Source: a virus. Taken from it: a stretch of DNA of 64,000 bases. Positions 4,283 to 63,743 of this stretch are shown here, piece by piece. The stretch lies in IMG/VR virus record IMGVR_UViG_3300014613_004232, positions 29,836-93,835 of that record. One strand, 5' to 3'. The position numbers and the translations under genes were made by a program. The notes under the pieces were generated by a model. It did no database searches, was not told where the DNA came from, and saw only the letters and a list, made by a program, of their open reading frames with translations. Positions within the stretch are counted from its first letter, which is position 1. Each line of letters opens with the position of its first letter.

Positions 4283-4323
4283 AGTGTGGGAATCGGCGCC
4301 CCCCTTCAGGAGGCCCGTTTTCC
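4283..4323 (-). promoter_or_regulatory. Putative activator-dependent late promoter of darB
   Basis: CGGAAAACG box, 29-nt spacer, CACACT -10. Confidence 0.65.
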
Positions 4324-4339
4324 GGTTACAGAGCCCTGA

Positions 4340-6499
4340 TCAAACGCCCTTCGCTGCAGCCACCGCCGCCGCCGTGTAGGCCTCGGCCGCACGGTTCAAC
4401 ATGCCCATCATCTCGGCGTCATCGGCGTACTTGGTGAACATGGGTTCGAGCTTGTCGAAGATGCCCGGATCCAGCAGGTCGATGGTCCCGTCGATGATCG
4501 ACTGCAGGTATGCCTGGTCCTCAGTAGGGGCTACTTCGGTAGCTTGCGGCTGGCCCGGTTCGGGCGTTGCTTGGTCGCCACCATCGCTGCCAAACGGGAT
4601 GGCGGCTGAAAACTTCTTGGTCATGGGGTTCCACTCGGAGGCATACACGGGGATGCTGTCGGCGTCGTAGCCTTGGCTTCCGGCAGACGCCTTTGCCAGG
4701 TCAAGCGTGTCGTAAGTGGTCAGAAGCACCCAAGAATCACCCTGCTTCGCCCGCCACTCGACAGAGGAGCCGACGATGTCCGTTTTGATGACAAACCGCG
4801 TTTCCTGGTGGCGTGCTTGCTTGATGACCGCCGGCGCGGCTCCCTGACCAGCCTTCTGTTCCAGTTCGGCGATGCGCTTGCGCGTCGTCCCGATCACCCC
4901 GTTGTTGTTGGACAGCATGTAGTCCGCAAAGCCGATGCGCCCCGCGAAGTCGGGCTTCTTCAGCCCCTCGATGGTCACCTGGTTGAGGCCCATCTCGATG
5001 AGCCCTTTGTCGTTGCCGGCCTTGATGAGCTTGTTGGCCTTCTTCATGAACTCCTGTTCGGCCATGAGGGCCGCAAGTTTGGCTCGCAACTTCTCCAGGG
5101 CCTGGGGGTCATCCGAGGTGATGGCGCCCTTGGGAGCAAGGCGCTTGAGAGCGTTCAGGCGGGTCAGGTCATTGTCGGCCGGGGCTGCGGGCGCCGGCTG
5201 GCTGGGCGGTGCCGGCGGGGCCAGGCGGTCGACCTCCTGCAGGATCTTGGCTGCGGTCTCCTCAGGGGAGACGCTCAGGTCATCCTCGATCTCGACATCC
5301 GAGGAGCCAGGGAACTTGACCTTGTAGGTCAAGAACGCCATGGCCTCCAACTTCAGATCCTTCTGGATGTCGATGCTGCCAGAGGATTGAATCACGCGCG
5401 CATCGCCTCGGCTGTGCGTGTCGGCGTTGTGGTCAGTGCCTCGCACCATGCCGGCGGCCTTGAGCGCTTCGCTGATGGCACCGGCCCGGATGTTGAACTT
5501 CCCTTGCTTGGCTCGGGCCTCCTCATACGGATCCACCTTTGCCACCTGGTTCTTCGCCTCGGCGATCGACTGGTTGAGATACGCCATGGTGTACTGAGGC
5601 ACCTCGTGCATGCCGGATGTGCGGACGCTCGTGGGGTTGGCCACCACCGCCTCAATCCGCTCGGGCGACAGGCCATTGTTGCGGAGGTAATCGCGCGCTT
5701 CGCCACGCCCCATGTCCTTGGTCAGGCCCTCGGCCTTCAGACGGTCCTGTCGGGCGATCGTGCTCTCTGCCTTCTCGAACAGGTACTGCGGGTCGCTGAC
5801 TCCCTCAGGCCACCCACGCTGCGCCAGTTCCTTCACGCTCTCGACGAGAGGCAGCAGGCGCTCCGAGAAATCGACTCGCAGGAGTTCGGCGTCGTGCTGC
5901 TGCTGGTAACTGGTGAGCAGATACGACAAGGTGTCGTAGGCCTCGCGAGCCTCGGCCTTGGTCACGCGCGCCTTGGAGACAGCGGGCGCCGGCGCCTCCA
6001 GGCCAGCCAGTTTGGCCGCCCCTTCCGGGGTGACGGCAAGGCCATCCTTCACGAAGACAAAGCCCAGGATGTTCAAACCGGCCATCTTCACGCGCTGGCG
6101 CTTGTAGCCGGCGGCCTCGCAGGCCTTGATCTTCGCCAGATCATCGGCGGCCCGACCAGCACCGGACGACTTCTCACCCTCGAAGGTGGCGGTCGCGGTC
6201 AACTGCATCATGCCCAGATCGACCCCCGTGCTGAAGAGCAGGTGCTGGTTGCGCCTGGGCAGCGTGCGGAACTCGGGGGGGATGGAGCTCGTGAATCGAG
6301 GGGTCCACTCCACCAACAGCGGCTCCAGCGGCACGGCGACGTCGTTCGCGACCAGTGCCGCAGGCTTGGCGGTCTCCTCGCGCGCTGCGAGGATGGACTT
6401 AGCCACATCCAGCTTCGCCAGTGCCGTCGGGGCCTGGGCCAGTTGTGTCCGCAGTGAGGGGATGCTGCCAGCGTCGTCCAGCGCAAGTGCTTGGGTCAT
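4340..6499 (-). CDS. Polyvalent head-packaged protein with DUF3560-like segment and DarA_C-like helical C-terminus
   Basis: ATG 6499 with GGAGA RBS; SDDPQALEKLRAKL...PDFAGRIGFADYMLSNNN resembles DUF3560; lies in the Dar cluster. Confidence 0.6.
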   Translation of the reverse strand: MTQALALDDAGSIPSLRTQLAQAPTALAKLDVAKSILAAREETAKPAALVANDVAVPLEPLLVEWTPRFTSSIPPEFRTLPRRNQHLLFSTGVDLGMMQLTATATFEGEKSSGAGRAADDLAKIKACEAAGYKRQRVKMAGLNILGFVFVKDGLAVTPEGAAKLAGLEAPAPAVSKARVTKAEAREAYDTLSYLLTSYQQQHDAELLRVDFSERLLPLVESVKELAQRGWPEGVSDPQYLFEKAESTIARQDRLKAEGLTKDMGRGEARDYLRNNGLSPERIEAVVANPTSVRTSGMHEVPQYTMAYLNQSIAEAKNQVAKVDPYEEARAKQGKFNIRAGAISEALKAAGMVRGTDHNADTHSRGDARVIQSSGSIDIQKDLKLEAMAFLTYKVKFPGSSDVEIEDDLSVSPEETAAKILQEVDRLAPPAPPSQPAPAAPADNDLTRLNALKRLAPKGAITSDDPQALEKLRAKLAALMAEQEFMKKANKLIKAGNDKGLIEMGLNQVTIEGLKKPDFAGRIGFADYMLSNNNGVIGTTRKRIAELEQKAGQGAAPAVIKQARHQETRFVIKTDIVGSSVEWRAKQGDSWVLLTTYDTLDLAKASAGSQGYDADSIPVYASEWNPMTKKFSAAIPFGSDGGDQATPEPGQPQATEVAPTEDQAYLQSIIDGTIDLLDPGIFDKLEPMFTKYADDAEMMGMLNRAAEAYTAAAVAAAKGV

Positions 6500-6524
6500 G
6501 GGATTCTCCGTTGAGGCGGACCGC

Positions 6525-6565
6525 ATTTGGCCCGCCCTCCGGCCTCACTCGCTCGCGGCCTTTCC
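6525..6565 (-). promoter_or_regulatory. Putative late promoter
   Basis: TTCGGAAAG, 29 nt, CCAAAT. Confidence 0.5.
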
Positions 6566-6837: not shown

Positions 6838-8647
6838 AGGTCTTCAGGGTCTCGTTCATCAGTTGACGTTCGGTTGGGCGGCCGTTCTTGATCCAGTCGA
6901 AGATGCGCGCCCGGACCTCATCCAGATCACCCACGACCTGGCAGCGGGCAACGGCGTTGTTGCCGACAAAGCCCGGACCATCCGCGATCGACACCTGGAA
7001 GATCACATGGCCCTTCTTTGGCCTGGTCCTGTCAAAGCCAGAGGTGTACTCGGTCACCTTGGCCGCCTGGTAGACGAGGTAAACCGTCGTGCCATCAATG
7101 TGAGCGCCGACGTAGGACTGCACGCTGTAGATCCTCTTGTACCCGCCTTCGATCCGCTCCATGGCAACCGGGTTGACCGAAGGCATGTCGGGCCGCAGGG
7201 TGATCCTGCTGGCCACTTCCTTGATGAGAACGGCCCGGGCGTCAGCCTGCGCCTCCATGAACTCTGCCTGCACGGTGGCGTTCTTCTCGCGCACGTCATG
7301 GATGAGCTTCATCAGCTTGTTCGCAGGCGTCTTCATGACGCCTTCGAGCAACTTGAAGATCTCCGGATCCTGCGCCATCCGCTGGCCGAGCAGCAGCGGA
7401 TCGCTCAGCGACTCCATGGCCATGGACATCACCTCGGTGGCGTCCGGGTAGAACTTGCCCACGTAGTGGCTGAAGAAGTGGTCCCGATAGGCCTTCTCAC
7501 TCGACCGGTACCCATTGTTTCCGGTCAGCGAGCGAAGGGTGTGCAGCCCCGAACCGTCGGAGCGCTTGTTGAGGAAGGCCTTCGCCGCCCACAGTATGCT
7601 CGGGTCGGACTCCAGGTGATGGCCCAACTCGTGCCACAGGGTGCGCTTGTCGAAGTCTGCGTCGATGTTGATCACTGCACTGCCGTGGCCGTGGACGCCC
7701 GTGGCGTTGGCGCGCCTCGACCCGTTGGTGCTGATCTGCACCGCCCCCAGTCGACCGGCGCTGAGCCGATAGAACTCCGCCATGTCAGCCCTGACCTGCT
7801 CCACCGGGTAGCCGCCCTTCTTCATCCGAGTGGCAGCCGCCTTGGAAATCTCCTGCTTGGCGGCCCAGTCCACCGCCTGTTGCTCGGAGACAGGAGACCA
7901 TTCCTTGAAGGCTGAGATGACCGAGTTGCCCGCTTCCCGCAAGGTAGCCCCGGCGCGGGCCAGCGCCACCTGACGCTTGCCGGCGGCCAGGGTTCGGCGG
8001 TCTTTGAACTCGTCGACAAGCTGCTGGTGAGCGTCGTAATACTCGTCGTAGGTGGAGCCACCGGGCTTGCCAGGGTTGAGGCGGTTTCGCAGTTCCTCAA
8101 AGGCGTGCTTCTGCTCGTCGTTGAGCTCAGCCATCACCTGGTTCTCTGCCGAGGTGGCCTGCTCATAGGCCTCCGCTCCCTGCGTCAGCGACTCGCGGAG
8201 GGTGTCCACGACCGTCGAGGCGCCCGCAAATCGGGCCAGTTGGGCATCAGGGAAGCCCATCGGCACATTGGGGATCGACAGTTGGGAGACCGCCCGCGAA
8301 ACCGTGTTTCCGTCGAGCTTCGCCGTGCTCGCCACCGATTCGACGTAACGCAAGACGGGCCTGAGGATGAGTTTGTCCTCAGCCACCTGCACTTCGTCAG
8401 CACCGGACTCAGCCAGGGCGTGAAAGTGCTCCGTCGCCCGCTTGATCGCGTCAAGCGGATCCATGACGTCGATGTCCTCCGCGCCGGCCGCGCGCAGCCC
8501 CAGAAGAGCAGCGCGAACCGCGGAGACGCGCTTGGTGGCCACGATCAGGTGTCCGGCGTTGTCGGCCCGCCTGGCCTCGCCTTGGGCCTCCCGTGCGGAT
8601 TGGAGGTCCCTTGCGAGACCGAGTCGGGTGAGAACAGGCGCGCTCAT
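6821..8647 (-). CDS. Polyvalent protein with zincin-like metallopeptidase domain
   Basis: WHELGHHLE (HExxH) plus downstream YVGKFY..ATEVMSM; coupled to darA stop. Confidence 0.7.
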   Translation of the reverse strand: MSAPVLTRLGLARDLQSAREAQGEARRADNAGHLIVATKRVSAVRAALLGLRAAGAEDIDVMDPLDAIKRATEHFHALAESGADEVQVAEDKLILRPVLRYVESVASTAKLDGNTVSRAVSQLSIPNVPMGFPDAQLARFAGASTVVDTLRESLTQGAEAYEQATSAENQVMAELNDEQKHAFEELRNRLNPGKPGGSTYDEYYDAHQQLVDEFKDRRTLAAGKRQVALARAGATLREAGNSVISAFKEWSPVSEQQAVDWAAKQEISKAAATRMKKGGYPVEQVRADMAEFYRLSAGRLGAVQISTNGSRRANATGVHGHGSAVINIDADFDKRTLWHELGHHLESDPSILWAAKAFLNKRSDGSGLHTLRSLTGNNGYRSSEKAYRDHFFSHYVGKFYPDATEVMSMAMESLSDPLLLGQRMAQDPEIFKLLEGVMKTPANKLMKLIHDVREKNATVQAEFMEAQADARAVLIKEVASRITLRPDMPSVNPVAMERIEGGYKRIYSVQSYVGAHIDGTTVYLVYQAAKVTEYTSGFDRTRPKKGHVIFQVSIADGPGFVGNNAVARCQVVGDLDEVRARIFDWIKNGRPTERQLMNETLKTYAQQP

Positions 8648-11600
8648 CAGCCGTTCACCTTCTCGTCAAGGTTGGCCCAGTAGGTGATGGCGTCCTGAGC
8701 CAGTTGCTCGACTTCACCGGTCAGCAGACCCGCATCGTTCAGGGCGTTCACGCAGGCCTCGATGGTCGCCAGGGTCAGGGACAGGTGGGCGGAATCGCTC
8801 TCCCCGGCCAGGATCGAGCGCAGTACGGCCACATTGCCGTCCTCGACCGCTGGGGTGGGCTCCGGCGCGGGCCCGGGTGTCGGCTCCAGCAACCACTTGA
8901 CCAGGTACTCCGGATCGGAGCCGCGCGGCGCCGGGGCGCCGTTGGGGTCCTTGACGCGCTCACCGCCCAGGTCACCGACGTAGATGATGGCCTTGCCGTC
9001 GCCGGCGATTGTCGCCACGCCGGCCTGCACGCCGTCTTTGAAGATTCGCCCCACGGCGGCCAGCTTGGCGCCGGTCTCCAGCCGGTCGAGCGCTGCCGTC
9101 GCACCGCCCACCCCCTCCTCGGGGACTGAGTCGACCGAGTCGAACGCGGCGACTTCTTCCACATCCCAGGAGACGGATGCGCCGCGCGCCTTGGCGGCTT
9201 CGTCGATGGCCTTGGCCGTCGCGAACATGCTGTAGTCCGGATCGGCGACCGTCTCGGCGATGTACTGCTTGAAGCGATCGGTCGCCTGGCCGAAGCGGTA
9301 GGCCTCGTCCACCTTCTGGGCAGGCGTGAGCTCGCCGGCGGTCTCGGCGACCTCTTCCTGGTCGGCCAGGTCATCGACTTCCTGACCGTCCGCGCCCATG
9401 ACCTTGAGCACGTAGAAGTTCAGCACTTCAACGCCGGCCAGGACCCCAGCATCGTCCAGGGCCACCTCGTGTTTGACGGCGGATCCGTCCTGTGCCACAC
9501 TTTGGCCGTCTCCAGCCGATTCGTCGGCGGAGTCCAAGGCCGGATCGGTCGGGCTTTCTCCCGACTTAACGATCCGGCTTTGTTTTTTGGCGAGCAAGGC
9601 GGACGGCGAATCGGACAGGTTGTACATGAAGCGGCCGTGCTCCATCTCGGCCAGGCTGACACCCACTTCCACCGACAGCCCGCCTACGCTCACCCAACCC
9701 ACCAGGTGGTGGAAGGCGCTGGCGCTGTCAGGGCGTGTTTTGTCGGTGGACTCCGTCCCGACGTGGTACCCCTTGCGCAGCAGATTCGGGATTGCAGCCA
9801 GCAACTTGACCCGCAACAGGTTGTAGGTCAGACCGCGCTTGACCTTGCCCCAGGACACACTGCCGTTGACCTTGATGTCGCCGATTGAGGTGTGCTTGTA
9901 GGTGTTGCCCTGCAATTCGCTGCGGAAATACTCTCGCGCGGCGTCGAAGACCTGCTTGTGCGCCGGGATCGGCTCGCCATCGTCATCGGTGGGGCGAATG
10001 CGGGAAAGCACCTCGGTACCGTCCAGTGTGGCGAGGACGGTGGTGGGCACGCCAGCCAGGGGGTTGTTCGGGTCGGGCAAGGCCGAGACAGGCTGCACCT
10101 CGGTGGCTTCACCCACCACTTCGCCCGGAACAACGATCGGATCTGGCTTGGATGCCTCGGCGTTCTCCTTGCGTTCGGTCCAGCCGGCGATCCACTGCTG
10201 AGCCTCTTCTTCGCTGAGCCCGGCCGGGGGGATCTCCGACTCTCCCCGATGCCATGCCTTCTGGCCTTGCGTGAAGGGGTCGAACTTGGAGCGCGCCAGA
10301 GTCATCGCCTCGGGGCCCACGATTCCCTCGACCAGCATGCCGAGGTCAAGCGCCTCGCGCGTCGAGAGGTCGAACTCAGCCATCATCTTCGCGCGGCGGT
10401 CGGAATAGGCGGCGTAGCCCTCGCTCGTCAGCACCTGGGCCAGTTCCTGGGCCATGGATTGAGGGTTCTTCTCACCCTCGGACGCGGCCGGGACAACAGG
10501 GGCGATGATGGCCGGCACCGCGGCGCCAGGTCCGAAGACTTCGTGGAGTTTCCGGGGGTAGACGATCGGGTACTTCGAGCCCCCGTCCGACACACGGAAG
10601 CCAGCCGCAGCCCCGAGAGACGCCCGAATGGCGTTTCGAGAAACCCCCATGTAGTCCACGAGGAACTGACCTACGGCGGACTGATCCACGTAGGCGTGCT
10701 GAGGCTGCAGTCCGAAGAGGTCGCGCAACTCAACATCGGTCGGTTGCACGCCCTGTTTCAGCTTCTCGGCCACGGCCTTCGCAAGCGCATCGCGCTGCAG
10801 GGCAAGCTCGGCGCCATCGGCTGCTTGCTTCAGGAATAGCGCCAACGAGGCGGCGGCCTCATCGATCGAATCGGCCAGATTGCCCTGGTTGCCCTGCGCC
10901 CTCGCGATCCACTTGCCTGAACCCAGGGAACCTTTGCCAGGCAAGATTTCGGTGTCAGCCGGCAGCCCGTGCTTATCGATCGCAGCGCTCATCTCGGCGG
11001 CGTTCGCGTCCGCACCAGATTGAGGGGGGACAGGGGTGATCTCGCCATCGCCCTTGGCGATCCGGGCCACCTCAACGTCGTCCTTGAGTTTCGCGAGCTC
11101 GGCCTCCAGGACTGGGATCTCGGCGTCGATCGCGGCATGCTGGGCGGCCAGGTCGGCCGCGCGGGCGTTCGCGCGCTTGAAGGCCTCGGAGTTCTTGTCG
11201 GCCAACTTCATCACGCGGCGGGCCACCTCGCGGGCGGGGATGTCGCGGCCACGCTCAGGGGCGGCCCAGATGGTGATGTCCTTCTTGTTGAGCATCCACT
11301 TCCAGGACACCAGTTCGTCCATGGGGGTGAGCTTGGCGGGCGTGGTGTCGGGGTTGTGGAACCACACGGTGACCGCCTGGCCGTCGTTCATGGCGAAGAC
11401 CACGGCAATCTGCATGGTGCCCCGCATCTTCACGGGGTCGGCGATGGTGAAGTCCACAGGCTGCACGACCGCGGCCGAGGCCTTCATGACGTTGAGCAAC
11501 TGCTCCATCTTGCGCTGCAGCATGCCGACCTCGACCACCATGGCATCCATGACTGCGCGGCCCTCGATGTCGGGGTCGGTCATCAAGTCGTCGACGGTGC

Positions 11601-12264
11601 AGGCGTCCAGCAGCAGCCCTCCGTCGTCGGCCAGCCGCATGTCGTAGATCAGGCGGGACAAGGGCTTGCTGGTGGGCAGGGCGTCAGCGCCCCATGCGAC
11701 TTGATCCATGGTTTTTTCACCTTCGTGGGGGAGTTGGTCAGGGGTGATGGCCACGGCCTTGTTGCCATGGCGCAGCCACCACTTGAGTTGATCGATCGAC
11801 AGGGGGACGATGGAGCGCAGGCCGCGCCAGCCCTTGTCGTAGGAGTGCAGGTAGCCGTCTCGGGCCTGGGCTTCAGTCGCGAAGCCGACCATGACCTTGT
11901 GCTCGTCAAAGCCGCCCTTGGCGTCGCCCTGGTTGATCACCCAGGCGCGCGTCGACTCGGGGAACGGCCCCAGGAAGATGTCGACCGCGTCGCCGTCGGC
12001 GCCTCGGGTGCCGGCGATGTAGCCGTAGTGGGCGGCCATGCGGTTTGACCAGGTCTTGCCATCCGGGCTTGTGCCGCTGCGCACGCTTCCGCGCACGTTC
12101 TCGACGCGAACGTCCAGGCCCTGAATTCGGGCACGCCCCATCTTGTAGTTCCCGGCGACCGACTGGGCCGGAGTTGGCAGCGGTCGGCAGTTGTTGCCGG
12201 TGGCGGCTTCATTGGCGGCCCGCTCCAGTTCGGAGAAGGCGCAGGGCGTCGTGTGTTTGTGCAT
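8647..12264 (-). CDS. darA: DarA-like polyvalent protein: N-terminal inorganic pyrophosphatase-like (InPase) domain, DarA_N, LPD3-like and DarA_C domains
   Basis: GNYKMG...HYGYI.GT.GADGDAVD...FDEHKV (InPase); DGQAVTVWFHNPD...WKWMLNKKDIT..APERG (DarA_N); C-terminal helical DarA_C-like tail. Confidence 0.8.
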   Translation of the reverse strand: MHKHTTPCAFSELERAANEAATGNNCRPLPTPAQSVAGNYKMGRARIQGLDVRVENVRGSVRSGTSPDGKTWSNRMAAHYGYIAGTRGADGDAVDIFLGPFPESTRAWVINQGDAKGGFDEHKVMVGFATEAQARDGYLHSYDKGWRGLRSIVPLSIDQLKWWLRHGNKAVAITPDQLPHEGEKTMDQVAWGADALPTSKPLSRLIYDMRLADDGGLLLDACTVDDLMTDPDIEGRAVMDAMVVEVGMLQRKMEQLLNVMKASAAVVQPVDFTIADPVKMRGTMQIAVVFAMNDGQAVTVWFHNPDTTPAKLTPMDELVSWKWMLNKKDITIWAAPERGRDIPAREVARRVMKLADKNSEAFKRANARAADLAAQHAAIDAEIPVLEAELAKLKDDVEVARIAKGDGEITPVPPQSGADANAAEMSAAIDKHGLPADTEILPGKGSLGSGKWIARAQGNQGNLADSIDEAAASLALFLKQAADGAELALQRDALAKAVAEKLKQGVQPTDVELRDLFGLQPQHAYVDQSAVGQFLVDYMGVSRNAIRASLGAAAGFRVSDGGSKYPIVYPRKLHEVFGPGAAVPAIIAPVVPAASEGEKNPQSMAQELAQVLTSEGYAAYSDRRAKMMAEFDLSTREALDLGMLVEGIVGPEAMTLARSKFDPFTQGQKAWHRGESEIPPAGLSEEEAQQWIAGWTERKENAEASKPDPIVVPGEVVGEATEVQPVSALPDPNNPLAGVPTTVLATLDGTEVLSRIRPTDDDGEPIPAHKQVFDAAREYFRSELQGNTYKHTSIGDIKVNGSVSWGKVKRGLTYNLLRVKLLAAIPNLLRKGYHVGTESTDKTRPDSASAFHHLVGWVSVGGLSVEVGVSLAEMEHGRFMYNLSDSPSALLAKKQSRIVKSGESPTDPALDSADESAGDGQSVAQDGSAVKHEVALDDAGVLAGVEVLNFYVLKVMGADGQEVDDLADQEEVAETAGELTPAQKVDEAYRFGQATDRFKQYIAETVADPDYSMFATAKAIDEAAKARGASVSWDVEEVAAFDSVDSVPEEGVGGATAALDRLETGAKLAAVGRIFKDGVQAGVATIAGDGKAIIYVGDLGGERVKDPNGAPAPRGSDPEYLVKWLLEPTPGPAPEPTPAVEDGNVAVLRSILAGESDSAHLSLTLATIEACVNALNDAGLLTGEVEQLAQDAITYWANLDEKVNG

Positions 12265-12287: not shown

Positions 12288-12328
12288 ATGATCTTGTCGG
12301 CCGCCGGCGCCCTACCCGCCTCTTTTCC
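12288..12328 (-). promoter_or_regulatory. Putative late promoter of darA operon
   Basis: ATCGGAAAAG, 29 nt, GATCAT. Confidence 0.6.
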
Positions 12329-12521: not shown

Positions 12522-14972
12522 CTACAGCCTGTTGTCCCGGGCGACATATCCAACCGGTGCCGCCGTCACGTTTTGACTTATCGGCATGGCAATGCCCGGA
12601 AACTTGCAATCGACAATCGCGAGGGCAGAGACCCGGTACGGCGAGATTGCCGCAGCCCCCACGCCAACATGGTTGTCCGTGTTTGGCGCTGGCGTGAATG
12701 TCAGGTCAACCAACTTTGCCGTGTTGTTGGCCACCTCGATGTTCCCTAGGCCGACCACGGTGGCGTTGCCGAGACCGACCAATTCGCCAGTCAACTTTCG
12801 CAGTCCGAACGACGAATCCCCGTAGACGCGCCGGATGTAGTAGTAGCCGTCAAGCGTGCCGGTGCTCAGCACGTTGTTGTAGATGCGGACAATCTGCCCC
12901 GCCTTCCAGTTGCCGTGCGCAACCTGAAACACCGAGTTCTCTGATCCGGAGATGGCAGCGATGTTTCGGGGGTGTAGGGAGTTTCCGTTGACGGGGAACG
13001 AGACACCCGATACGCCAGGCGGAATGTTTTCGATTGCCCCGGTAACAAGGGTGTCGGCTGAGTTTGAAAGCATCACGGGAGACATGCTTGCGTTGAACTC
13101 AGGCCCGCACACCATCCTGCAAGCAATCGTGTTCCCCTTCGACAACTGAATTGCCGAGTCGTTTGAAACAAGTCCCCCTCCGGCAGGCACCAGCGGGAAG
13201 TAGCTTCGCAGCGTGATGCCCTCGCTGTCGGAGATCCAGAAGGAACGAAAGCGCGTTGCGGCTCCCGTTGTATCGTTGATCCTGATGTGACCGGTGATTT
13301 CAGCGCTCTTCCCAGCCACCGATTTGACGCCGTATGCGTTCACGCCGTCATGCTGCATGAATAGCTGCAAGGTGCAGCCGGCACCAGACCCACCGGTGGG
13401 CGAATTCGGGGTTGCAGGCAATACGCTGTACTCGCCTTCGTCCAGCCGGCGAACCGCTTGGACAGCCCCATTGGCGTCTACCTGGGTCACGAGAAACTTC
13501 GCTTGACGCACGTATGTGCCACCAGCCGGGTTGATCTCGTCGCCAACGGCGTAGCCGACTCCAGATCCGACAGCGACGAGGAGGCCGGTTGTCCACGGGT
13601 TGTAGCCCGTCGTGTTCAGTGGAGCGCTATCGCGATATGCAATGTCGCTAAGCTGGAACGTGTTGGCCGTCAGGTTCGCAGGCATGACCTGATAGAACCC
13701 GTTGAGTGCGTTCATGCCACCGATCGCAGGAATCAGGTGCACGACCTTGCCGGCAGTCAGCCCGTGATTGTTCAGCGTGACCACGGCAGCGGCGGCCTGG
13801 GTAACAGCAGTCGGGCTGCCAACAATGACACCGGACACAGCATCCCAGACTGCATTGCCCGCAGTGCCGACTTCAAGGTCAGCGTGGATGCGAATAGCTC
13901 GAAGATCGTCTGGGTTGCGGAAGCCAGCAGCTGCATGAGAGAAGATCGACACACCACCGTTTCTAAGCAAGCCAGACTTGCCGGACACCTGCACGTCGAC
14001 GTTCTGCACGCGCCCGGTCTTGGTGTAGTTTTCCGGTGCGCCTGAGAACGCTTTTGTGACCGGCGTGTAGACCTTGATCGCAGCGCCACGCGCGGAAACG
14101 CAAGTGATGTTGCGGGCAATGAAGTAATCAAGCCCCTGGTCGTCCATGTACAGAGCTGACCGAACGCGGTCGTCACCGGCCGCAAGCGCGTCGTCTCCCG
14201 CCTCGATGTACCAGTTGTCCCAAACGCAGCCACCGTACTGCCAGTGGGCTCCGTCCTGGTACAAGCCGGCCTGGCCAAGGATCCGGCCGTTGAGCATGCG
14301 AGCGTAGCCGCCGCCGCGCGTGGCCCAGTTTCGCGACCACTGCGATGTGATCAGCGTCAGGCCGTCAGCCACGAAGTTGCGGACGTTGTAAAGATCCAGG
14401 ACGGCAAGCGTGTCCTGGTTGTTGGCGTCCAGAACCCCGTTGCGCACAGTGATATTGTCGGCATTGCCGTACCAGGTGTTGCCAGTCTTCTTGAGCTCAG
14501 CACACAGGATTGAGCCGCGCGCTGTGAGCGCGCCAGCCCCGCTATAGTCGGCATTGCGGATCTTTTTCAGCGTGGAGCCGTTTAGATCAATGTCAATGTT
14601 TGAACGGACAAATAGGCCATCAACTAAGTACGTACCGTTGACTGGAAGCACAACCTTCAACTGACGCTTTGCTACCCTCGCAGAAGCCGACATATCGTCG
14701 ATGAACTCTTGCAGGATCGCCGTATCGTTTCCTCCGGACTCTGCGGGCCCCATATACGGGCCATAGTTGTTCCCTCCGACGCCTGGCTGGTTGGGCCGGA
14801 AGTCCTCCATGATGACCAATGGCGTTGCGCGGATCAAGCGCCCATCTTCATCGATGTAGTCCGTTTTCGATCCGGCCGTCTGAGACTGGAGCGTGCGATC
14901 GCCGATGATCACAACCGGGACTGCTGTGATTTCCTGTCCATCGACGTCGACATATTGAATGAGGCTGCTCAT
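12522..14972 (-). CDS. Tailspike/depolymerase-like beta-helix protein
   Basis: NDTAILQEFID...GTYLVDGL..SNIDIDLNGSTL, NITVRNGVLDAN, GDDALA (pectate-lyase-like beta-helix); Gly/Asn/Thr rich; lower GC than flanks. Confidence 0.7.
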   Translation of the reverse strand: MSSLIQYVDVDGQEITAVPVVIIGDRTLQSQTAGSKTDYIDEDGRLIRATPLVIMEDFRPNQPGVGGNNYGPYMGPAESGGNDTAILQEFIDDMSASARVAKRQLKVVLPVNGTYLVDGLFVRSNIDIDLNGSTLKKIRNADYSGAGALTARGSILCAELKKTGNTWYGNADNITVRNGVLDANNQDTLAVLDLYNVRNFVADGLTLITSQWSRNWATRGGGYARMLNGRILGQAGLYQDGAHWQYGGCVWDNWYIEAGDDALAAGDDRVRSALYMDDQGLDYFIARNITCVSARGAAIKVYTPVTKAFSGAPENYTKTGRVQNVDVQVSGKSGLLRNGGVSIFSHAAAGFRNPDDLRAIRIHADLEVGTAGNAVWDAVSGVIVGSPTAVTQAAAAVVTLNNHGLTAGKVVHLIPAIGGMNALNGFYQVMPANLTANTFQLSDIAYRDSAPLNTTGYNPWTTGLLVAVGSGVGYAVGDEINPAGGTYVRQAKFLVTQVDANGAVQAVRRLDEGEYSVLPATPNSPTGGSGAGCTLQLFMQHDGVNAYGVKSVAGKSAEITGHIRINDTTGAATRFRSFWISDSEGITLRSYFPLVPAGGGLVSNDSAIQLSKGNTIACRMVCGPEFNASMSPVMLSNSADTLVTGAIENIPPGVSGVSFPVNGNSLHPRNIAAISGSENSVFQVAHGNWKAGQIVRIYNNVLSTGTLDGYYYIRRVYGDSSFGLRKLTGELVGLGNATVVGLGNIEVANNTAKLVDLTFTPAPNTDNHVGVGAAAISPYRVSALAIVDCKFPGIAMPISQNVTAAPVGYVARDNRL

Positions 14973-14997: not shown

Positions 14998-15037
14998 AGT
15001 CTGCAATCTCAGTTTCCACGAGAACCTCTCGGTTTCC
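14998..15037 (-). promoter_or_regulatory. Putative late promoter of tailspike
   Basis: TTTCGGAAACCG, 28 nt, CAGACT. Confidence 0.5.
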
Positions 15038-17576: not shown

Positions 17577-18674
17577 TCAAGTCTTGATGACGCCAGCGAA
17601 GGCGGTCGAGCGGCCTCGGGTTTCAGTGGCGATCCGCGGTGCACCGTACCCACCGAGTTCACCCACCCAGGGGGTGTAGATCTCCCAGCCATGGCCATTG
17701 CCATTGGTGGTGGTGTCGCTGACGTCGCCTTCCGAAGGCCCGTTTTTGAAACCATGGCTGTGACCCTGGAACGCGTCCTGCAGCCAGGCGCCAAAACTCT
17801 GACCGGGAAGCACCCCGCGGAGGTCATCCCAGAACCGGATGTGCTCGCCTCGAACATCTGCGGAAGCGAACGTACCGTCGCCGTTGTCCTTGTAGAACAA
17901 GGTGCCGGCGGTCCAGCCGCTGGAGAGCATCAAGCCGTGATGCTTCGCCCAGTGGTAGAGCGCCAAGGTGTTCGGCAGGCCAGTCACGCCGGTCTTGATC
18001 CAGGCGTTACGCGGGGTGGGCTGGGTGTCAGGCCTGAGCCAGCCGATGTCGACAGAGGCGTACCCGATGTAGTTCGCCCCGTTCGCCGTGAAGGACTGCC
18101 AAGTCATCAGGGAGTTGAAAGCCGCTGACCAGATGGGCCCCTCGTCAACGGTAGGCAGCGCCGCGGCTGCGCCGAAGTGCCGGATGTACTGGACGTGCGG
18201 GTGGGGGTTGCTCAAGTGCTGGGCCATGATGGCCAGCGCCAGCGCGCCACCCGGATCAACCTCGATGGTCACCGACCCGGCTGGCACCCGGGTGACCTTC
18301 ATCGCGAACTGACCCACCCAATCGATGGTGTTGCGCTGGAAGATGGTGGTGCCCGGCGCCGAGTGGACCGCAAAGAGCACCCCGCCTGCATCCGGGTCGC
18401 CGGCATAAAAACCGATCTCGCCCACGTTGTAGGGGGCGCCAGCGTATGACGGCAAGTATGCGGAGACCAGGAAGCCGCCTGAGCCAGTGGAAACTGAACC
18501 AGAGATGGCCACCTTCTCCTTGCGAAGCACCAGCGCCACCGCATTGTCGGCCGGGGCGTACTGCCCCTGTCCGAGAACGATGTGGGTGATCTTGAGCTGG
18601 ATGCCGTCGGCGTCAGCATTCACCGCCGCAGCGAGACCGGCGTCGGTGATCTTGGGGGAGATGACGGTTGGCAT
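17577..18674 (-). CDS. Tail fibre protein
   Basis: ATG 18674 MPTVISPKITDAGL...EIGFY...LFAV (baseplate-attachment N-terminus), HPHVQY, C-terminal DVRGEHIR...QGHSH...ETR collar-like domain. Confidence 0.8.
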   Translation of the reverse strand: MPTVISPKITDAGLAAAVNADADGIQLKITHIVLGQGQYAPADNAVALVLRKEKVAISGSVSTGSGGFLVSAYLPSYAGAPYNVGEIGFYAGDPDAGGVLFAVHSAPGTTIFQRNTIDWVGQFAMKVTRVPAGSVTIEVDPGGALALAIMAQHLSNPHPHVQYIRHFGAAAALPTVDEGPIWSAAFNSLMTWQSFTANGANYIGYASVDIGWLRPDTQPTPRNAWIKTGVTGLPNTLALYHWAKHHGLMLSSGWTAGTLFYKDNGDGTFASADVRGEHIRFWDDLRGVLPGQSFGAWLQDAFQGHSHGFKNGPSEGDVSDTTTNGNGHGWEIYTPWVGELGGYGAPRIATETRGRSTAFAGVIKT

Positions 18675-18707: not shown

Positions 18708-18748
18708 AGCATTCACGTCACGCCAGCCTGGTCGGCCGCCCGTTTTCC
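18708..18748 (-). promoter_or_regulatory. Putative late promoter of tail fibre operon
   Basis: AACGGAAAACG, 29 nt, AATGCT. Confidence 0.6.
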
Positions 18749-21484: not shown

Positions 21485-22914
21485 CAGTAGCTCCACAGGG
21501 AGTTGCCGAACTTCGCGCTCTTGACGTCAACCGTGAGGCTCGCCCCGGTCACGTGCAGGTACTGCTCGGGCAGAAGCGTCACTGGGATAGTCACGGTGGC
21601 CTTGAAGTCTGCCGATGCGTCCTGGAGCGCTGGCACCTTCGCCTCCAGGAGCTTGTTGAGGTCCTGGTTGGGAACGGGATTGCGCATGCCCCGCGAGACC
21701 GCCTTGGCCCCATCTCCGTACTCGCCCAGCACGGCGGTGGTGATCTGGGCCTCCACGGCGGCGATGTCGTGCACCACGGACACGCTCGCGTCCACCGTGA
21801 CAGGGATCGGCGTCAGGACAGTCGGCACGAACCGGACCCTGTAGGAGTCGTCCGCCCGCTTGACCAGTTCGCGGACTCGGGCCTCGAACTGGGCATTGCT
21901 CATCCCATCGACCAGGCCAGAGACGAACAAGGTGTTGATGTTGTCGACGTTGGCGCCCCGCACGCTCTCCTCGATCTGCTCGTTCCAGACGCTCAGGAAT
22001 CGAGGAGTGAGGTAGCGACGCAGTAGCGCATCGAACTCGGCCAGGAACACCGCGTTGTGGTCGTAGATCGCGGGGTAGCGCGCCATCACCCGCAGATCCG
22101 CCATGGATGGGGGGTTGGCACCGGTGTCTTCCACCGAGGTCAGGGAGGCCTTCACCAGTCCATCCCCGGGCGTCAGGATGTACTGCAGAGTGAAGGTGTC
22201 GCCTGCGCTCAGGTCGCTGATCTCGCCCTCGCATTCGGTCATGCGCAACTCGAAGACGTCGCCGGCGGTCACGCTGAAGCCCACGCGCGTCGAGTCACCC
22301 ATCCGGACCCACAGTCGACGTAGCTCGTCGGTTTCCAGGGTGTAGGCGAGTTGGCCAGCCGTGATGTTGAAGAACTCGGGCGAGTAGGTGAACTCCACCC
22401 CGCTCTTCCAGACGCTGAGCATGGTGAGGTGAGAGGAATCGCTCACCGGCACCTGGATCTCGTAGAACGGCTGGGCGATCTGCACCTGGTGCGTCACGGT
22501 CCGGGTGCTCTTCTGGGTGAGGGCGACCGAGCCGGTCTGGCCCGCGGGGATGGTCACCGAGGCGTCCGCCTGGTACAGGCGCCCCTTGTTGTCCATGAGC
22601 AGGCGCCCGGCGATGACCGTGAAGGCGGAGGGGCCGTCGTTCTTGAGGGCGATCGTGCCGCGCCACGGGCGCGCGAGCGGCAGGATGCCCTTGAGCGCCG
22701 CGTCGGCCAGCACCGTCGAGTCCAGGGTCTTCGTGAACGCCTCGAACCGCCCAACCTCGGAGTGCTGGGCCAGCAAGAAGGACATCTCCACCTGCGCGCC
22801 GATCTGCGCCAGCACGCGAGGGTCGCCAGCCTGGGCGGCCAGGGCGATGGACGGGAACTGGGACAGCGCATTGAGCGCTGCCTGTCGGATCTGATCCTTG
22901 GTCGGTGCGCTCAC
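21484..22914 (-). CDS. bplA: Baseplate wedge protein BplA / baseplate-J-like
   Basis: LRVMARYPAIYDHNAVFLAEF, LSVWNEQIEE...NINTLFVS; size and order pmgA-bplA-gp16. Confidence 0.7.
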   Translation of the reverse strand: MSAPTKDQIRQAALNALSQFPSIALAAQAGDPRVLAQIGAQVEMSFLLAQHSEVGRFEAFTKTLDSTVLADAALKGILPLARPWRGTIALKNDGPSAFTVIAGRLLMDNKGRLYQADASVTIPAGQTGSVALTQKSTRTVTHQVQIAQPFYEIQVPVSDSSHLTMLSVWKSGVEFTYSPEFFNITAGQLAYTLETDELRRLWVRMGDSTRVGFSVTAGDVFELRMTECEGEISDLSAGDTFTLQYILTPGDGLVKASLTSVEDTGANPPSMADLRVMARYPAIYDHNAVFLAEFDALLRRYLTPRFLSVWNEQIEESVRGANVDNINTLFVSGLVDGMSNAQFEARVRELVKRADDSYRVRFVPTVLTPIPVTVDASVSVVHDIAAVEAQITTAVLGEYGDGAKAVSRGMRNPVPNQDLNKLLEAKVPALQDASADFKATVTIPVTLLPEQYLHVTGASLTVDVKSAKFGNSLWSY

Positions 22915-23211: not shown

Positions 23212-23252
23212 ATTTGGCCTCTTGGCACGCCACGGTGCGGCGGTCACTTTCC
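23212..23252 (-). promoter_or_regulatory. Putative late promoter (leaderless pmgA)
   Basis: TTCTGGAAAG, 29 nt, CCAAAT, 7 nt before ATG. Confidence 0.5.
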
Positions 23253-23447: not shown

Positions 23448-23453
23448 GAGGCC

Positions 23454-23494
23454 AGTTTCATCGGGCTCAGGCGCCCGGCCCTGGCACGCTTTCC
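23454..23494 (-). promoter_or_regulatory. Putative late promoter of candidate sRNA
   Basis: ATTCGGAAAGCG, 29 nt, GAAACT. Confidence 0.55.
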
Positions 23495-26356: not shown

Positions 26357-26397
26357 AGTTTGTGAGGGTGTCAAACCGTGGTGCCGAACCGTTTTCC
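26357..26397 (-). promoter_or_regulatory. Putative late promoter of tRNA/ncRNA island
   Basis: TTTCGGAAAACG, 29 nt, CAAACT. Confidence 0.65.
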
Positions 26398-32863: not shown

Positions 32864-32927
32864 ACTTTCTCGCCCTCGCTGTATGTCCGTTCAGTGCGTT
32901 TTCCGAATCGGCTGGATGGCCGTTCAG
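32864..32927 (-). promoter_or_regulatory. Late-type promoter with two LexA-type boxes
   Basis: ATTCGGAAAACG, 29 nt, GAAAGT; CTGTATGTCCGTTCAG (32879-32894) and CTGGATGGCCGTTCAG (32912-32927). Confidence 0.6.
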
Positions 32928-36134: not shown

Positions 36135-36198
36135 AGATTGCTGCGGTCGCTGTCGGTCAGTCGGGGCCGTTTTCCGAAACGGCTGTACGCCCGTTCAG
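36135..36198 (-). promoter_or_regulatory. Late-type promoter with LexA-type box
   Basis: TTTCGGAAAACG, 29 nt, CAATCT; CTGTACGCCCGTTCAG at 36183-36198. Confidence 0.6.
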
Positions 36199-39990: not shown

Positions 39991-39997
39991 GCCCCGC

Positions 39998-40038
39998 AGA
40001 TTGCGGGCGCGTGCGGGTGCTTGCGGGGTGCGTTTTCC
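39998..40038 (-). promoter_or_regulatory. Putative late promoter (leaderless TerS)
   Basis: AACCGGAAAACG, 29 nt, CAATCT, 7 nt before ATG. Confidence 0.65.
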
Positions 40039-44043: not shown

Positions 44044-44084
44044 AGGCTATTGACGCTAAGTCCTTATGAGCGCTGACGTTTTCC
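44044..44084 (-). promoter_or_regulatory. Putative late promoter
   Basis: ATTCGGAAAACG, 29 nt, TAGCCT. Confidence 0.65.
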
Positions 44085-45897: not shown

Positions 45898-46175
45898 TGC
45901 GGTTCACTCACATTGATGGCGAACACCTGCACCGGCTCTGGGCCGAAGTGCGGGTGGGTGATGGTGGTGACGCGGTAGCCGCGCCAGGGGCGGATCAGGC
46001 GGCGCTCGTGTTCGTTGCGCTTGGGGTATCCCAGCGTGAGCACGATGCGATCGAAGGTGCGGCCCTCCAGCCGGCGGCGCCAGTACGGCGTGCACAGGCG
46101 GAACTCCTCGGGCTTCGTGCCCGCCTTGATGGCGTTGAAGTAGCAGGCCTTCAGGGGCAGGATGAGGTCAGCCAT
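45894..46175 (-). CDS. ASCH-like domain protein
   Basis: LPLK..YF.AIKAGTK.EEFR....YW..RL. Confidence 0.75.
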   Translation of the reverse strand: MADLILPLKACYFNAIKAGTKPEEFRLCTPYWRRRLEGRTFDRIVLTLGYPKRNEHERRLIRPWRGYRVTTITHPHFGPEPVQVFAINVSEPQ

Positions 46176-46395
46176 GGTGTCGAGCCTTCTTTGTTCGTTT
46201 TGACCATTGCCATGGGATGACTCGGCAGCCATCCGTTGTTGCGGTACTCGGCAGCACGATGCATCGCAGCGTCTTGCCGCGCACACCGATGACCTGGTAG
46301 CGTCGGCCGGACGCGAGTTCCAGCACGTCGCTGAATTCAGGGATCTCACCCCACGCGACGCGCAGCTTGACCTCGGCCCAGTCAGGCTTTGGCAT
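46168..46395 (-). CDS. Hypothetical protein
   Basis: ATG 46395 with GGGAG RBS. Confidence 0.5.
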   Translation of the reverse strand: MPKPDWAEVKLRVAWGEIPEFSDVLELASGRRYQVIGVRGKTLRCIVLPSTATTDGCRVIPWQWSKRTKKARHHG

Positions 46396-46561
46396 CGCCT
46401 TCTCCCTTGACCAAGTCTGAAACGTGCTTGATGGCCCAACCAACGGGCATCCAAACCGTTGCTGCGATGAGAACGATGACCACCAGGATGGCGCCGCAGT
46501 AGTCGGCGTCTGACCAGGGCTCGCGCTCGGTGCGGTAGCCGGGTGGGCGGAAGTAGTCCAT
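46382..46561 (-). CDS. Small membrane protein
   Basis: One TM helix; coupled. Confidence 0.5.
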   Translation of the reverse strand: MDYFRPPGYRTEREPWSDADYCGAILVVIVLIAATVWMPVGWAIKHVSDLVKGEGDAKA

Positions 46562-46782
46562 CAGGCACTTTCCTGCGACTGGTCTGCAGGAGTCTCTTCC
46601 AGCATGTGCAGGTCCGAGTCCAGAACCTCGCACCATACGGCGCGCGGATCACCGATCTTGCGGAACTGGTGCCAGTAGCCGTTGCCGCTCCAGTTGCGCC
46701 CCAGGTAGATCAACCGATCGGGCTGGCCCTTCCAGTTGTAGGCGCCGCCCACCTTCATGGTCGCTCGGGTGAGGGCGCTCAT
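46561..46782 (-). CDS. Hypothetical phage protein
   Basis: GG.YNWK.QPDRLIYLG...WHQF. Confidence 0.7.
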   Translation of the reverse strand: MSALTRATMKVGGAYNWKGQPDRLIYLGRNWSGNGYWHQFRKIGDPRAVWCEVLDSDLHMLEETPADQSQESA

Positions 46783-48224: not shown

Positions 48225-48899
48225 TCAGCCCTGCTGGGCGTCATCAAAGAGGGGGCGCTTGATGTCCAGGCGCTCCTCGATGGTTTGGATTGCGGCCTCG
48301 GTGACCTGCTCATGGCGAGTGACCAGGGCCACGGCGTTGTCGACCTCGGTCTGGAGCTCGTCGATGGTCCGGAGGACCGTCGCGGCGCCGCGCAGTTCGC
48401 CGTCGAAGACGTCCAGGTTTGCCGCGCGCAACTGCTCGACCGCCTCGATCGCCGTCTTCGCCTTTTCGGTCAGCCGCTTCGTCTGGGTCACCGAAGGCGC
48501 CACCGACTGGTGCGTGAGCACTGCGTTGACGATGGTCCTGGCGGTCGACTCCATCAGGCCCGACACGTGGCGCAGCGCGGCTTGGCGCTCGGCCGCTCGG
48601 GGGTCGCGCTCAGGCTCATCGCTGATGCCCAGGAGATAGTCGGCTGACACCCCGAACACCTCTGCCACCTTGACGATGTTGACAATCGGCAGCAGGCGCT
48701 CGGCCTTCTCTGCCAGGGACAACTGGGTGGAATTGGTGTAGCCCAACTTCGCCGCAGCTTGTTCCTGGGACCAGCCGTTGAGCTCGCGCGCCTTCTTCAG
48801 GCGGCGGGACATCACCTTGCGCAGGTAGTCGTTCTCGTCGACGCGGGCGACACGCTGCCCAGCCTTGTCTCGAACGATCGCAAACACATCACGCTTCAT
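48225..48899 (-). CDS. XRE-family HTH regulator (candidate late activator)
   Basis: RLKKARELNGWSQEQAAAKLG...LS.AE...FGVSADYLLG; AGGAG RBS; occupies the Q-gene position. Confidence 0.75.
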   Translation of the reverse strand: MKRDVFAIVRDKAGQRVARVDENDYLRKVMSRRLKKARELNGWSQEQAAAKLGYTNSTQLSLAEKAERLLPIVNIVKVAEVFGVSADYLLGISDEPERDPRAAERQAALRHVSGLMESTARTIVNAVLTHQSVAPSVTQTKRLTEKAKTAIEAVEQLRAANLDVFDGELRGAATVLRTIDELQTEVDNAVALVTRHEQVTEAAIQTIEERLDIKRPLFDDAQQG

Positions 48900-62272: not shown

Positions 62273-62300
62273 GAACCGAAATCGCAAAGAGGAACGCCCA

Positions 62301-63536
62301 ATGTTCTCCACATCCACCCTCTACCGCCTTGTGTGCGGTGTCCCCATCGAGTCCAGCGTCCTGGAAGACGCCCTCAACAAGGCTCAGTTCGTGCCGACTG
62401 GACCTACCCAGCAGCAGAGCGCCGGCTGGGTCGCGCCCCGCGGCGAAGAGCACGGCGCCATGGTCGAGGCGATCGGCGGCCAACTGTTCATCCGCCTGCG
62501 CACCGAGGTGCGCAAAGTGCCGGGCCCGGCCGTCAAGCGGCATGCAGATGAGATCGCCGACCAGATCGAAGAGAGCACCGGCCGCCGCCCCGGCAAGAAG
62601 CAGATGAAGGAGATCAAGGAGCAGGCGCTGCTCGAACTCCTGCCGTCGGCCATCCCAGGGCAGTTCGACACCTGGGCATGGATCGACCCCAAGTCCTGCG
62701 TGATGGTCGTGGACTCGACATCACCCGGCAAACTCGACCAGTTCGTCACCCTCCTGGTGAAGGCCATGGAAGACGTCAACTTCAGCCTGATCCAGACGGA
62801 GATGTCGCCCGCCGTGGCGATGGCCCACTGGCTGGGCACGGGCGAGCCACCGTACCAGTTCAGTGTCGACCGCGAGTGCGCGCTCAAGTCCCCCGACGAG
62901 ATGAAGTCGGTGGTCCGCTACTCCCGGCACCCCCTGGACACCGACGAGGTCAAGCAGCACATCCAGGCCGGCAAGGTGCCCACCCACCTCGCACTGACGT
63001 GGCGCGACCGCGTGTCGTTCGTGCTGACCGACTCCGGCAAGCTGAAGAAGCTGTCCTTCCTGGACATCGTCTTCGAGGGGCCCAGCAGCCCGGCCGGCGG
63101 CAAGGTAGACAAGTCCGAGGCCTTCGAGGCCGACTGCGCGATCTTCACCGGCGAGATGTTGCAGTTGATCCCCGACCTGCTGGATGCCCTGGGCGGCGAG
63201 GCCGCGCCGCTCGCGCCCCCTCAGACCGGCATGGCGGCAGAGAAAACCGACGGCGAATCGACGACCGATGCCCAGGCCCCGTGGGATCAGCACCTGGAGG
63301 CCGACGGCCCAGACCCGCTCTACCCCGACGCATGCGAAATCATCGTGGCCAATCAGAAGGCCTCGATTTCGCTGGTGCAGCGCCACCTGCACATCGGCTA
63401 CAACCGCGCCGCGCGCATCCTGGAGCAGATGGAGAAGGCCGGCCTGATCAGCCCGACCGACGCCAAGGGCAACCGTCAGATCAACGACCTGGTCAACCAG
63501 GCCGAGCGCCAGGCCATCGCGGAGGCCGCCCAGTGA
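62301..63536 (+). CDS. rdgC: RdgC recombination-associated protein fused to FtsK gamma domain
   Basis: SAGWV.PRG, RPGKK..KE.KE, LALTW.DRVSFVLT; C-terminal DPLY..A......ASIS.VQR.L.IGYNRAARI.E.ME..G. Confidence 0.88.
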   Translation: MFSTSTLYRLVCGVPIESSVLEDALNKAQFVPTGPTQQQSAGWVAPRGEEHGAMVEAIGGQLFIRLRTEVRKVPGPAVKRHADEIADQIEESTGRRPGKKQMKEIKEQALLELLPSAIPGQFDTWAWIDPKSCVMVVDSTSPGKLDQFVTLLVKAMEDVNFSLIQTEMSPAVAMAHWLGTGEPPYQFSVDRECALKSPDEMKSVVRYSRHPLDTDEVKQHIQAGKVPTHLALTWRDRVSFVLTDSGKLKKLSFLDIVFEGPSSPAGGKVDKSEAFEADCAIFTGEMLQLIPDLLDALGGEAAPLAPPQTGMAAEKTDGESTTDAQAPWDQHLEADGPDPLYPDACEIIVANQKASISLVQRHLHIGYNRAARILEQMEKAGLISPTDAKGNRQINDLVNQAERQAIAEAAQ

Positions 63537-63712
63537 TAGTCGCCAAGGAAACGATCCGCCGCACCGTGGCCGCCCTCGCCAAGGCAGATCCGGGTGCCAG
63601 CGAAGCTGAACTCCACCGCCGCGCCGCAATCTCCCTCGGAATCCAGGTCGACATGGTCCGCACCGTCATGGAGGAGGCGACCCCGTTGGGTGCTGCCGAG
63701 TCGGAAAACTGA
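63533..63712 (+). CDS. Small hypothetical HTH-like protein
   Basis: GTG start overlapping rdgC stop. Confidence 0.5.
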   Translation: MIVAKETIRRTVAALAKADPGASEAELHRRAAISLGIQVDMVRTVMEEATPLGAAESEN

Positions 63713-63743
63713 CATGCGCGCTCTACCCGTGCGCTCCCAACAT
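63703..63743 (+). promoter_or_regulatory. Late-type promoter in front of xis-like gene
   Basis: GTCGGAAAACT, 29 nt, CAACAT. Confidence 0.55.

Follow-up and report, generated by a model that had tools for sequence, protein, structure and literature searches.

How are the late genes of a prophage read when the promoters before them show an upstream box and a -10-like hexamer, and nothing that resembles a -35 between the two? The question is raised by the provirus record IMGVR_UViG_3300014613_004232 (93,835 bp), of which bases 29836-93835, a stretch of 64,000 nucleotides hereafter called the window, were examined in detail. The element, identified from its sequence, is a temperate myovirus prophage of ~94 kb distantly related to P1, and among deposited phages the closest is Xanthomonas phage Rb1 (91.5 kb), whose sheath protein is 47% identical. 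An initial annotation of the window had described thirteen promoters sharing a CGGAAA-type box at a fixed distance from a -10-like hexamer, and had proposed that they form one regulon of activator-dependent promoters devoid of a -35. Every computational test that we ran agreed with this proposal. Our best explanation, which we consider quite probable, is that these sites are activator-dependent sigma-70 late promoters and that an XRE-family helix-turn-helix (HTH) protein is their most likely activator.

The spaced motif and its distribution

The observation itself is real and confirmed. All thirteen sites, hexamers included, were found where the initial annotation had placed them, and the gap between CGGAAAN and hexamer is as it had described, 29 nt in 12 of them and 28 nt in the one at position 15032. 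CGGAAA by itself is unenriched in the window (30 copies vs 27.7 expected). The spaced pattern GGAAA-N31-ANNNT occurs 11 times, vs 2.52 +/- 1.53 in 100 dinucleotide shuffles (shuffle maximum 6), so that the comparison with shuffled sequence, which had been proposed as a check, gave 0 of 100 shuffles reaching 11. Moreover, the 11-mer TTCGGAAAACG is present in 4 exact copies, where an estimate from composition predicts ~0.01.

The distance between the two elements is equally distinctive. When NANNNT was scored at offsets 10-69 from each GGAAA, a single peak appeared on the gene strand, at +35 (14 of 70 GGAAA vs a background of ~2), and the scan of the opposite strand was flat. The same peak is seen in Rb1 (12 vs ~2) and in nine high-GC relatives pooled (45 vs ~7). 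The GGAAAA core of the box lies 29-30 nt ahead of the hexamer, and the stretch from +10 to +34 after GGAAA shows no conservation.

The list of thirteen sites was incomplete, since the window covers just part of the element: the whole record holds 18, five of them outside the window. All 18 precede open reading frames (ORFs), with the hexamer 4-51 nt from the start codon, or tRNA/RNA genes, and the early region (window 44.1-63.7 kb) has none. The units that follow the sites are those of the proposed regulon, with functions in the virion, in packaging and in DNA modification, besides tRNA/RNA and xis-like genes. When a weight matrix of two blocks was built solely from foreign capsid promoters, it recovered the known sites as 12 of its top 14 matches in the record. 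A literature search on the motif, on P1-like late promoters outside enterobacteria and on phage Rb1 found nothing relevant, and the box with its geometry is what we read as an undescribed version of activator-dependent phage late promoters.

Promoter anatomy and predicted transcription start

The consensus of the -10 is cAnAcT in this phage and nAgAAT in its lower-GC relatives; that of the box is wwtCGGAAAACG here and aaacccGGAAAAacc in the relatives. The statement that no consistent -35 is present withstood a direct count. Indeed, with a spacing of 16-18 bp allowed, the sites match TTGACA at a mean of 2.06 of 6 positions at best, vs 2.27 at random positions, and no site reaches 4 of 6; the TG of an extended -10 is absent from every site. 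With the hexamer set at -12 to -7, the GGAAAA core falls at about -47 to -41 and the full conserved box at ~-53 to -38, in keeping with the activator-type site near -42 to -47 that had been suggested.

Where would transcription start? The ATG lies 7 nt after the hexamer for two genes here, terS (the small terminase gene) and the first baseplate gene. For the orthologue of the latter, the gap between hexamer and start codon is 6 nt in Rb1 (where 65072 is the annotated start) and 7 nt in a Methylobacter prophage. That three phages so distant share this geometry speaks for the hexamer as a true -10 and is consistent with transcription that begins on the start codon or next to it. As in P1, a sigma-70 -10 without a -35 is found in many copies before late operons; and, as at class II promoters in general, the geometry and the -35 test place the box against or across the -35 position, with a weak or absent -35 and a usable -10.

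We propose that host sigma-70 RNA polymerase reads these sites through their weak -10, and that a phage-encoded factor bound to the asymmetric box would substitute for the -35. The GGAAAA core, at -47 to -41, would occupy the place that class II activators, e.g. Mu Mor/C and lambda cI, use to contact the polymerase. Taken together, the sites would make up a late regulon comprising head, tail and Dar-like internal proteins, terminase, DNA-modification enzymes, tRNAs and the xis-like gene, and the terS and first baseplate transcripts would begin at or next to their start codons. The activator is most likely the XRE-HTH protein encoded at window 48225-48899, from a family whose genome position is that of lpa in P1.

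Other readings of the same letters were tried and abandoned. One was that the hexamer is no more than the A-rich loop of a GC hairpin, as in N4-type hairpin promoters or terminators; several sites do fold into hairpins, but the register of these is not constant, and they were rejected as the defining feature. An alternative-sigma -35 in the box, with a -10 ~16-17 nt downstream, was discarded as positions +10 to +34 carry no information, and the sigma-54 and AlgU/RpoE-like readings on account of a spacing misfit seen on inspection of the sequences.

Conservation in Rb1 and related prophages

Single-protein searches of viral and metagenome contig collections returned no close relatives for footprinting, nor did an alignment of the capsid protein against viral contigs. 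Rb1 has 12 forward and 0 reverse copies of the spaced motif, vs 0 and 0 for the same pattern written backwards; in P1 the counts are 7 and 8, vs 6 and 8 for the backwards control, and the motif is unenriched. The Rb1 sites precede the capsid gene, a DarA/Hdf-like gene, an internal head protein gene and the baseplate leader gene, among others. Four orthologues carry a site in both phages, namely those of the capsid, the internal head protein, the baseplate leader and the giant protein of 2302 amino acids (aa) discussed below.

To these we added 39 related prophage loci retrieved by alignment of two capsid proteins, that of this phage and that of Rb1, from genomes of Beta- and Gammaproteobacteria of 37-68% GC (cited below by numbers with the prefix L, the Methylobacter prophage being L021). 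In 25 of 28 non-redundant loci the capsid gene is preceded, at a distance of 260 nt or less, by a GGAAA box with the same spacing; for other genes of the same loci this holds in 0-4 of 7-23 cases. The -10 of the lower-GC relatives is plainer (GAGAAT, CAGAAT, CACAAT, GATAAT). At 40-43% GC the C and G flanking the box are still conserved, and its GG is invariant. In the Moraxellaceae relatives GGAAAA is missing before the capsid gene and is replaced by TGTAACCCTC, a GC-rich box without an A-tract, which is followed by a T-rich spacer and stands 33 nt before a -10-like hexamer. This box was found at L037:3789, 9342 and 9916, three copies in one locus, and at L042:9915 and L043:9915.

Not every match in the relatives is likely to be a promoter. 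The spaced motif also occurs within the XRE coding sequence at a conserved position (L014:1766, L016:701, L015:2608, L021:501); these copies arise from W-E-K and L-K-K-L codons and are probably not promoters. One copy in L012 was set aside likewise, since it falls in the terS repeat region described below.

Search for known activators

Which protein could read the box? The families that serve this purpose elsewhere were not recovered. In the record, neither Mor/C (PF08765) nor the Ogr/Delta zinc finger (PF04606) has a match at E<=1, and no sigma-70 region 2 was found. The model of Lpa, the late activator of P1 (PF25716/phrog_1704), found nothing at E<=1 in the record or in Rb1. Of four relatives' genomes scanned with it, three were likewise empty and one holds a single match of E 0.56, below the family cut-off and with two stop codons inside. 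BLASTP comparisons of Lpa with the XRE protein and with ORF 40065-40766 were negative, and PHROG and Pfam scans of ~80 ORFs revealed no polymerase.

Some individual candidates were rejected as well. ORF 40065-40766, just upstream of terS, was considered as an Lpa homologue or activator and has neither a family match nor a homologue in the relatives. ORF 45897-46652 (minus strand, 252 aa, phrog_625) shows a weak pairwise match to P1 Lpa, its C-terminal third aligning with the C-terminal half of Lpa (27% over 88 aa, E 6e-5), which the Pfam Lpa model does not support. The zinc-finger and other small regulators of Rb1 were dismissed as a shared activator, having no homologues in this phage.

The XRE protein as candidate activator

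The gene at window 48225-48899 (minus strand) encodes a protein of 224 aa with an HTH_3 domain (PF01381, E 4.7e-10) and a helical C-terminal domain. The initial annotation had named it as one candidate activator. By conservation and position it has become the best one, and its role as reader of the box remains a proposal. Indeed, it is the sole recognisable DNA-binding protein common to this phage and Rb1 (E<1e-5, ORFs of at least 45 aa compared). Full-length orthologues (~205-250 aa) were present in 10 of 10 relatives' genomes tested, each with HTH_3 followed by a conserved helical domain bearing an ELNP.F..M(R/K)GG motif; P1 has no member of this family. Database homologues of 53-95% identity bear generic names, e.g. 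"helix-turn-helix domain-containing protein".

In the six relatives whose junction was read, the XRE gene adjoins terS, at the end of the early operon. Here, ~8 kb of other genes lie between the two, and terS has a box of its own. An AlphaFold2 model of the protein (mean predicted local distance difference test score, pLDDT, of 77, and 85-95 over residues 21-90) shows a five-helix HTH and three long helices, the C-terminal domain being coiled-coil-like with no solved relative. The matches of the HTH in the PDB include ImmR, SinR, C.BclI, C.AhdI and the DNA-binding domains of the lambda, 434 and P22 repressors. The Moraxellaceae orthologues have diverged residues in the segment taken as helices 2-3, placed by analogy with lambda-type HTHs, and these are the relatives with the different box, so that box and recognition helix may co-vary.

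Alternative explanations

Several points weigh against our reading. The hexamers of several sites are poor (TAGCCT, GAAAGT, AATGCT), and the A-tract of the box coincides with the expected place of a proximal UP-element subsite. The lack of symmetry in the box is unusual for the XRE/cI-type fold, whose members mostly bind as dimers to dyad operators. Most relatives are predicted to co-transcribe the XRE gene with terS and the large terminase gene, terL, which implies expression of terminase before activation, although the lpa-pacA arrangement of P1 resembles this one. The co-variation is based on two box classes, and the fold search recognises the HTH alone, so that nothing ties the C-terminal domain to RNA polymerase. 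Finally, we infer the late timing and the activator dependence from promoter anatomy, and the positions of transcription start and the identity of the activator are predictions. That the XRE protein is the activator that reads the box is, in our judgement, a nearly even question.

The promoters could be late promoters whose box is read by something else. This might be a phage protein so small or so quick to evolve that it falls below the ORF and similarity thresholds used, or one that needs a host partner, as Lpa needs SspA; the XRE protein would then have a different task, for instance as a second immunity regulator, in early regulation, or in assisting pac recognition beside terS. The asymmetry of the box, the existence of just two box classes in the co-variation and the place of the XRE gene in the terS-terL transcription unit of the relatives can all be read this way, as can the box-like GAAACC/GGTTTC repeats inside their terS genes, and the comparison with Rb1 covered ORFs of at least 45 aa. 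However, this phage and Rb1 have the same box and no second recognisable DNA-binding protein in common, and the two other ORFs of interest lead nowhere, 40065-40766 lacking a family match or a homologue in the relatives and the Lpa-like match of 45897-46652 lacking support from the Pfam model. We regard another factor as rather unlikely.

Could the host polymerase manage without any phage factor? GGAAAA might be a proximal UP-element-like A-tract contacted by the alpha C-terminal domain, which would make these sites constitutive promoters of host type. The A-tract at -45 to -41 does lie within the -46 to -38 window of the proximal subsite, whose consensus, from studies of E. coli rrnB P1, is AAAAAARNR. 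But the GG is invariant and the flanking C and G are kept in relatives of 40-43% GC; the Moraxellaceae box, at about the same distance, is GC-rich and not an A-tract; the motif is confined to the late region; and, without a -35 or an extended -10, a UP subsite alone would make a very weak promoter. We find this improbable. We give still less credit to a sigma factor or RNA polymerase of the phage's own, for which the box would be the upstream element. The large virion proteins of unassigned function (2302 and 1205 aa) and the GC-rich hairpins that overlap or follow some hexamers leave it some room, but no sigma-70 region 2 was found in the record and no polymerase among ~80 ORFs scanned, the downstream element fits a sigma-70 -10 at its two key positions, the 29-nt gap matches no known sigma and the register of the hairpins varies. 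Hardly credible, in our view, is that the repeats are not promoters at all and serve as DNA sites for packaging, partition or replication, or as elements acting in RNA. Short repeated motifs do mark the likely pac region of the relatives as well. The sites, however, are strictly co-oriented with genes and directly precede ORF starts, their distance to a hexamer whose second base is A and whose sixth is T is fixed, and start codons follow the hexamer by 6-7 nt in three phages.

Comparison with known phage late promoters

P1 late promoters share with these sites a sigma-70-type -10 without a -35, and in both genomes, of ~94 kb, the units for head, tail, dar, packaging and accessory functions are preceded by promoters that number a dozen or more. 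In P1 the order is pdcB-lpa-pacA-pacB, and the relatives of the present type place the candidate activator at the corresponding spot, just upstream of terS and after an HNH-like gene. The boxes themselves differ: P1 has an inverted repeat of 9 bp, of the AAGTnACTT type, which is centred near -22 and separated from the -10 by 4-9 nt, whereas this one is an asymmetric GGAAAA. The P1 boxes ATGTGACTT and AAGTTACTT lie at -22, and no such repeat was found there in this phage. P1 has Lpa and neither the XRE family nor an enrichment of the spaced motif; this phage has no Lpa. It also differs from P1 in integrating, with a tyrosine integrase. In P1, Lpa (gp10) works with the host protein SspA. The comparison with P1 Lpa is valid for the principle alone.

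The middle and late promoters of Mu, driven by Mor and C, likewise lack a -35 and use one box for several late operons, and host sigma-70 polymerase reads them, as we propose it does here. The Mor/C site at Mu promoters overlaps ~-33 to -55 and is centred at -43.5. Mor/C sites are dyad-symmetric, however, whereas this box is asymmetric across the family, and no Mor/C protein was found in the record. When we looked for a Mu-type dyad, TTTCgGAAA formed a 9-bp palindrome at some sites of this phage, at a position that fits; aaacccGGAAAA of the relatives is not palindromic. Lambda cI at PRM and the controller (C) proteins of restriction-modification systems have an HTH fold like that of the candidate. 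Activators of the cI type act from ~-42 by touching region 4 of sigma. However, cI and C proteins act as dimers on palindromic operators, at promoters that retain a -35. P2 Ogr/P4 Delta and T4 MotA/AsiA also illustrate the replacement of -35 recognition by phage factors at co-regulated promoters. Ogr recognises TGT-N12-ACA at ~-55 and the MotA box lies at -30; neither geometry matches this box.

We tentatively suggest, with a little more doubt than assurance, that a clade of P1-related temperate myoviruses, widespread in Beta- and Gammaproteobacteria, has replaced Lpa by an unrelated activator combining an XRE-HTH with a coiled-coil-like domain, encoded directly upstream of terS and reading GGAAAA at ~-45. 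This would possibly be a new, cI-like way of recruiting polymerase to promoters without a -35, with box and helix co-diverged in the Moraxellaceae. Lpa would then not be the sole late switch in the wider P1 lineage, as a non-homologous regulator with a different promoter geometry appears to serve at the genome position of lpa. In practical terms, the motif offers a usable annotation rule for late transcription units in a large and unstudied group of ~90-kb prophages, found in Burkholderiales, Rhodocyclales, Xanthomonas, methanotrophs, nitrifiers, Halomonas, Aeromonas and others, and the likely leaderless starts matter for the annotation of gene starts. Rb1, with a deposited genome, a named host strain and the same boxes, is a natural test system, and promoter-box pairs could become orthogonal expression parts in high-GC proteobacteria.

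Genome context and individual sites

The tyrosine integrase gene is at genome 1-1296, at the left end of the record, and window 44-63 kb holds the immunity, replication and recombination region. A long minus-strand block carries the small and large terminase genes, DNA methyltransferases, a DpdA-like transglycosylase and three tRNAs. The structural and lysis genes comprise those of the baseplate, tail fibres, large internal proteins, portal, capsid, sheath and lysis, and families of P1 type are represented by PmgG-, Hdf- and DarB-like proteins and by a sheath family match. The terL product is 34% identical to P1 PacB (E 8e-90).

Sites are given below in window coordinates, from box to hexamer, and all are on the minus strand except the last. 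The site at 4283..4323 (GGAAAACGG box, hexamer CACACT) is upstream of the 2302-aa DarB-like virion protein (window 1-4254, genome 27181-34089, minus strand), a homologue of Rb1 gp58 (45% identity over 1837 aa); the Rb1 copy of this site, before the orthologous gene, is 1 nt shorter. At 6525..6565, CTTTCGGAAAGG and CCAAAT stand upstream of a 728-aa ORF (4340-6526). The site at 12288..12328 (GATCAT) precedes the 1205-aa internal-head/Dar-like protein (8647-12264), neighbour of the 2302-aa protein, with DarB-like and internal-head-like family matches; its Rb1 orthologue (51801) has a site at 51754. By comparison with the Dar system of P1, these two large proteins are probably injected anti-restriction or internal head proteins. 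The shorter-spaced site, by 1 nt, is that at 14998..15037 (CAGACT), upstream of an 816-aa ORF (12522-14972), and the one at 18708..18748 (AATGCT) is upstream of a tail-fibre gene (17577-18674).

The baseplate block is served by the site at 23212..23252 (TGGAAAG, hexamer CCAAAT), whose hexamer is followed after 7 nt by the ATG of the first gene of the block (22911-23204, minus strand). Farther upstream, the site at 23454..23494 (GAAACT) is followed by ~200 nt without a credible ORF; this stretch between the two promoters (23257-23454, minus strand) has no Rfam match and may encode a small late RNA. Exact copies of TTCGGAAAACG are found at 26357..26397 (CAAACT), upstream of tRNA-Met and tRNA-Gly; at 32864..32904 (GAAAGT), upstream of a small ORF and a DNA methyltransferase gene (31319-32578); at 36135..36175 (CAATCT), upstream of a methyltransferase/DpdA-like/cupin operon (32938-36078); and at 44044..44084, with the poor hexamer TAGCCT, upstream of the operon of a NinI-like phosphatase. 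The site at 39998..40038 (CAATCT), 7 nt from the ATG of terS, serves terS (38773-39990) and the PacB-like terL (37204-38772). The sole intergenic plus-strand copy in the window, at 63703..63743 (GTCGGAAAACT, CAACAT), stands 35 nt upstream of a small ORF truncated by the end of the window. The five further sites lie upstream of the window, in the 29.8 kb outside it, at genome 25789, 17836, 14878, 8389 and 4343. A plus-strand match to the spaced pattern at window 29657-29697 is antisense to the surrounding late-block genes; it is most likely due to chance, the alternative being an antisense promoter.

Repeats and hairpins near terS and the capsid gene

The terS genes of the relatives contain clusters of GAAACC/GGTTTC (L007:1955-2100, L009:2440-2520, L045:2330-2460, L014:2385-2420), in which the DNA is preserved while the peptide varies (ETI, KVS, KP-rich), and the repeat CCGGAAACC is similar to the promoter box. 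Such clusters resemble a pac site that consists of hexamer repeats and lies inside terS, as it does in pacA of P1. In the present phage GAAACC occurs just once in terS, and the start of terS with its promoter (window 39930-40035) holds five CCCGCA and one TGCGGG, which may be the phage's own pac or TerS-binding repeat. In the relatives, the leader of the capsid mRNA shows a conserved stem-loop (e.g. AGTCGGC-TACC-AGCCGGC) a few bases after the predicted start, at L014:9940-9975 and at the equivalent place in L007, L011, L016, L024, L009 and L021; it may act as a 5' stabiliser or a regulatory hairpin.

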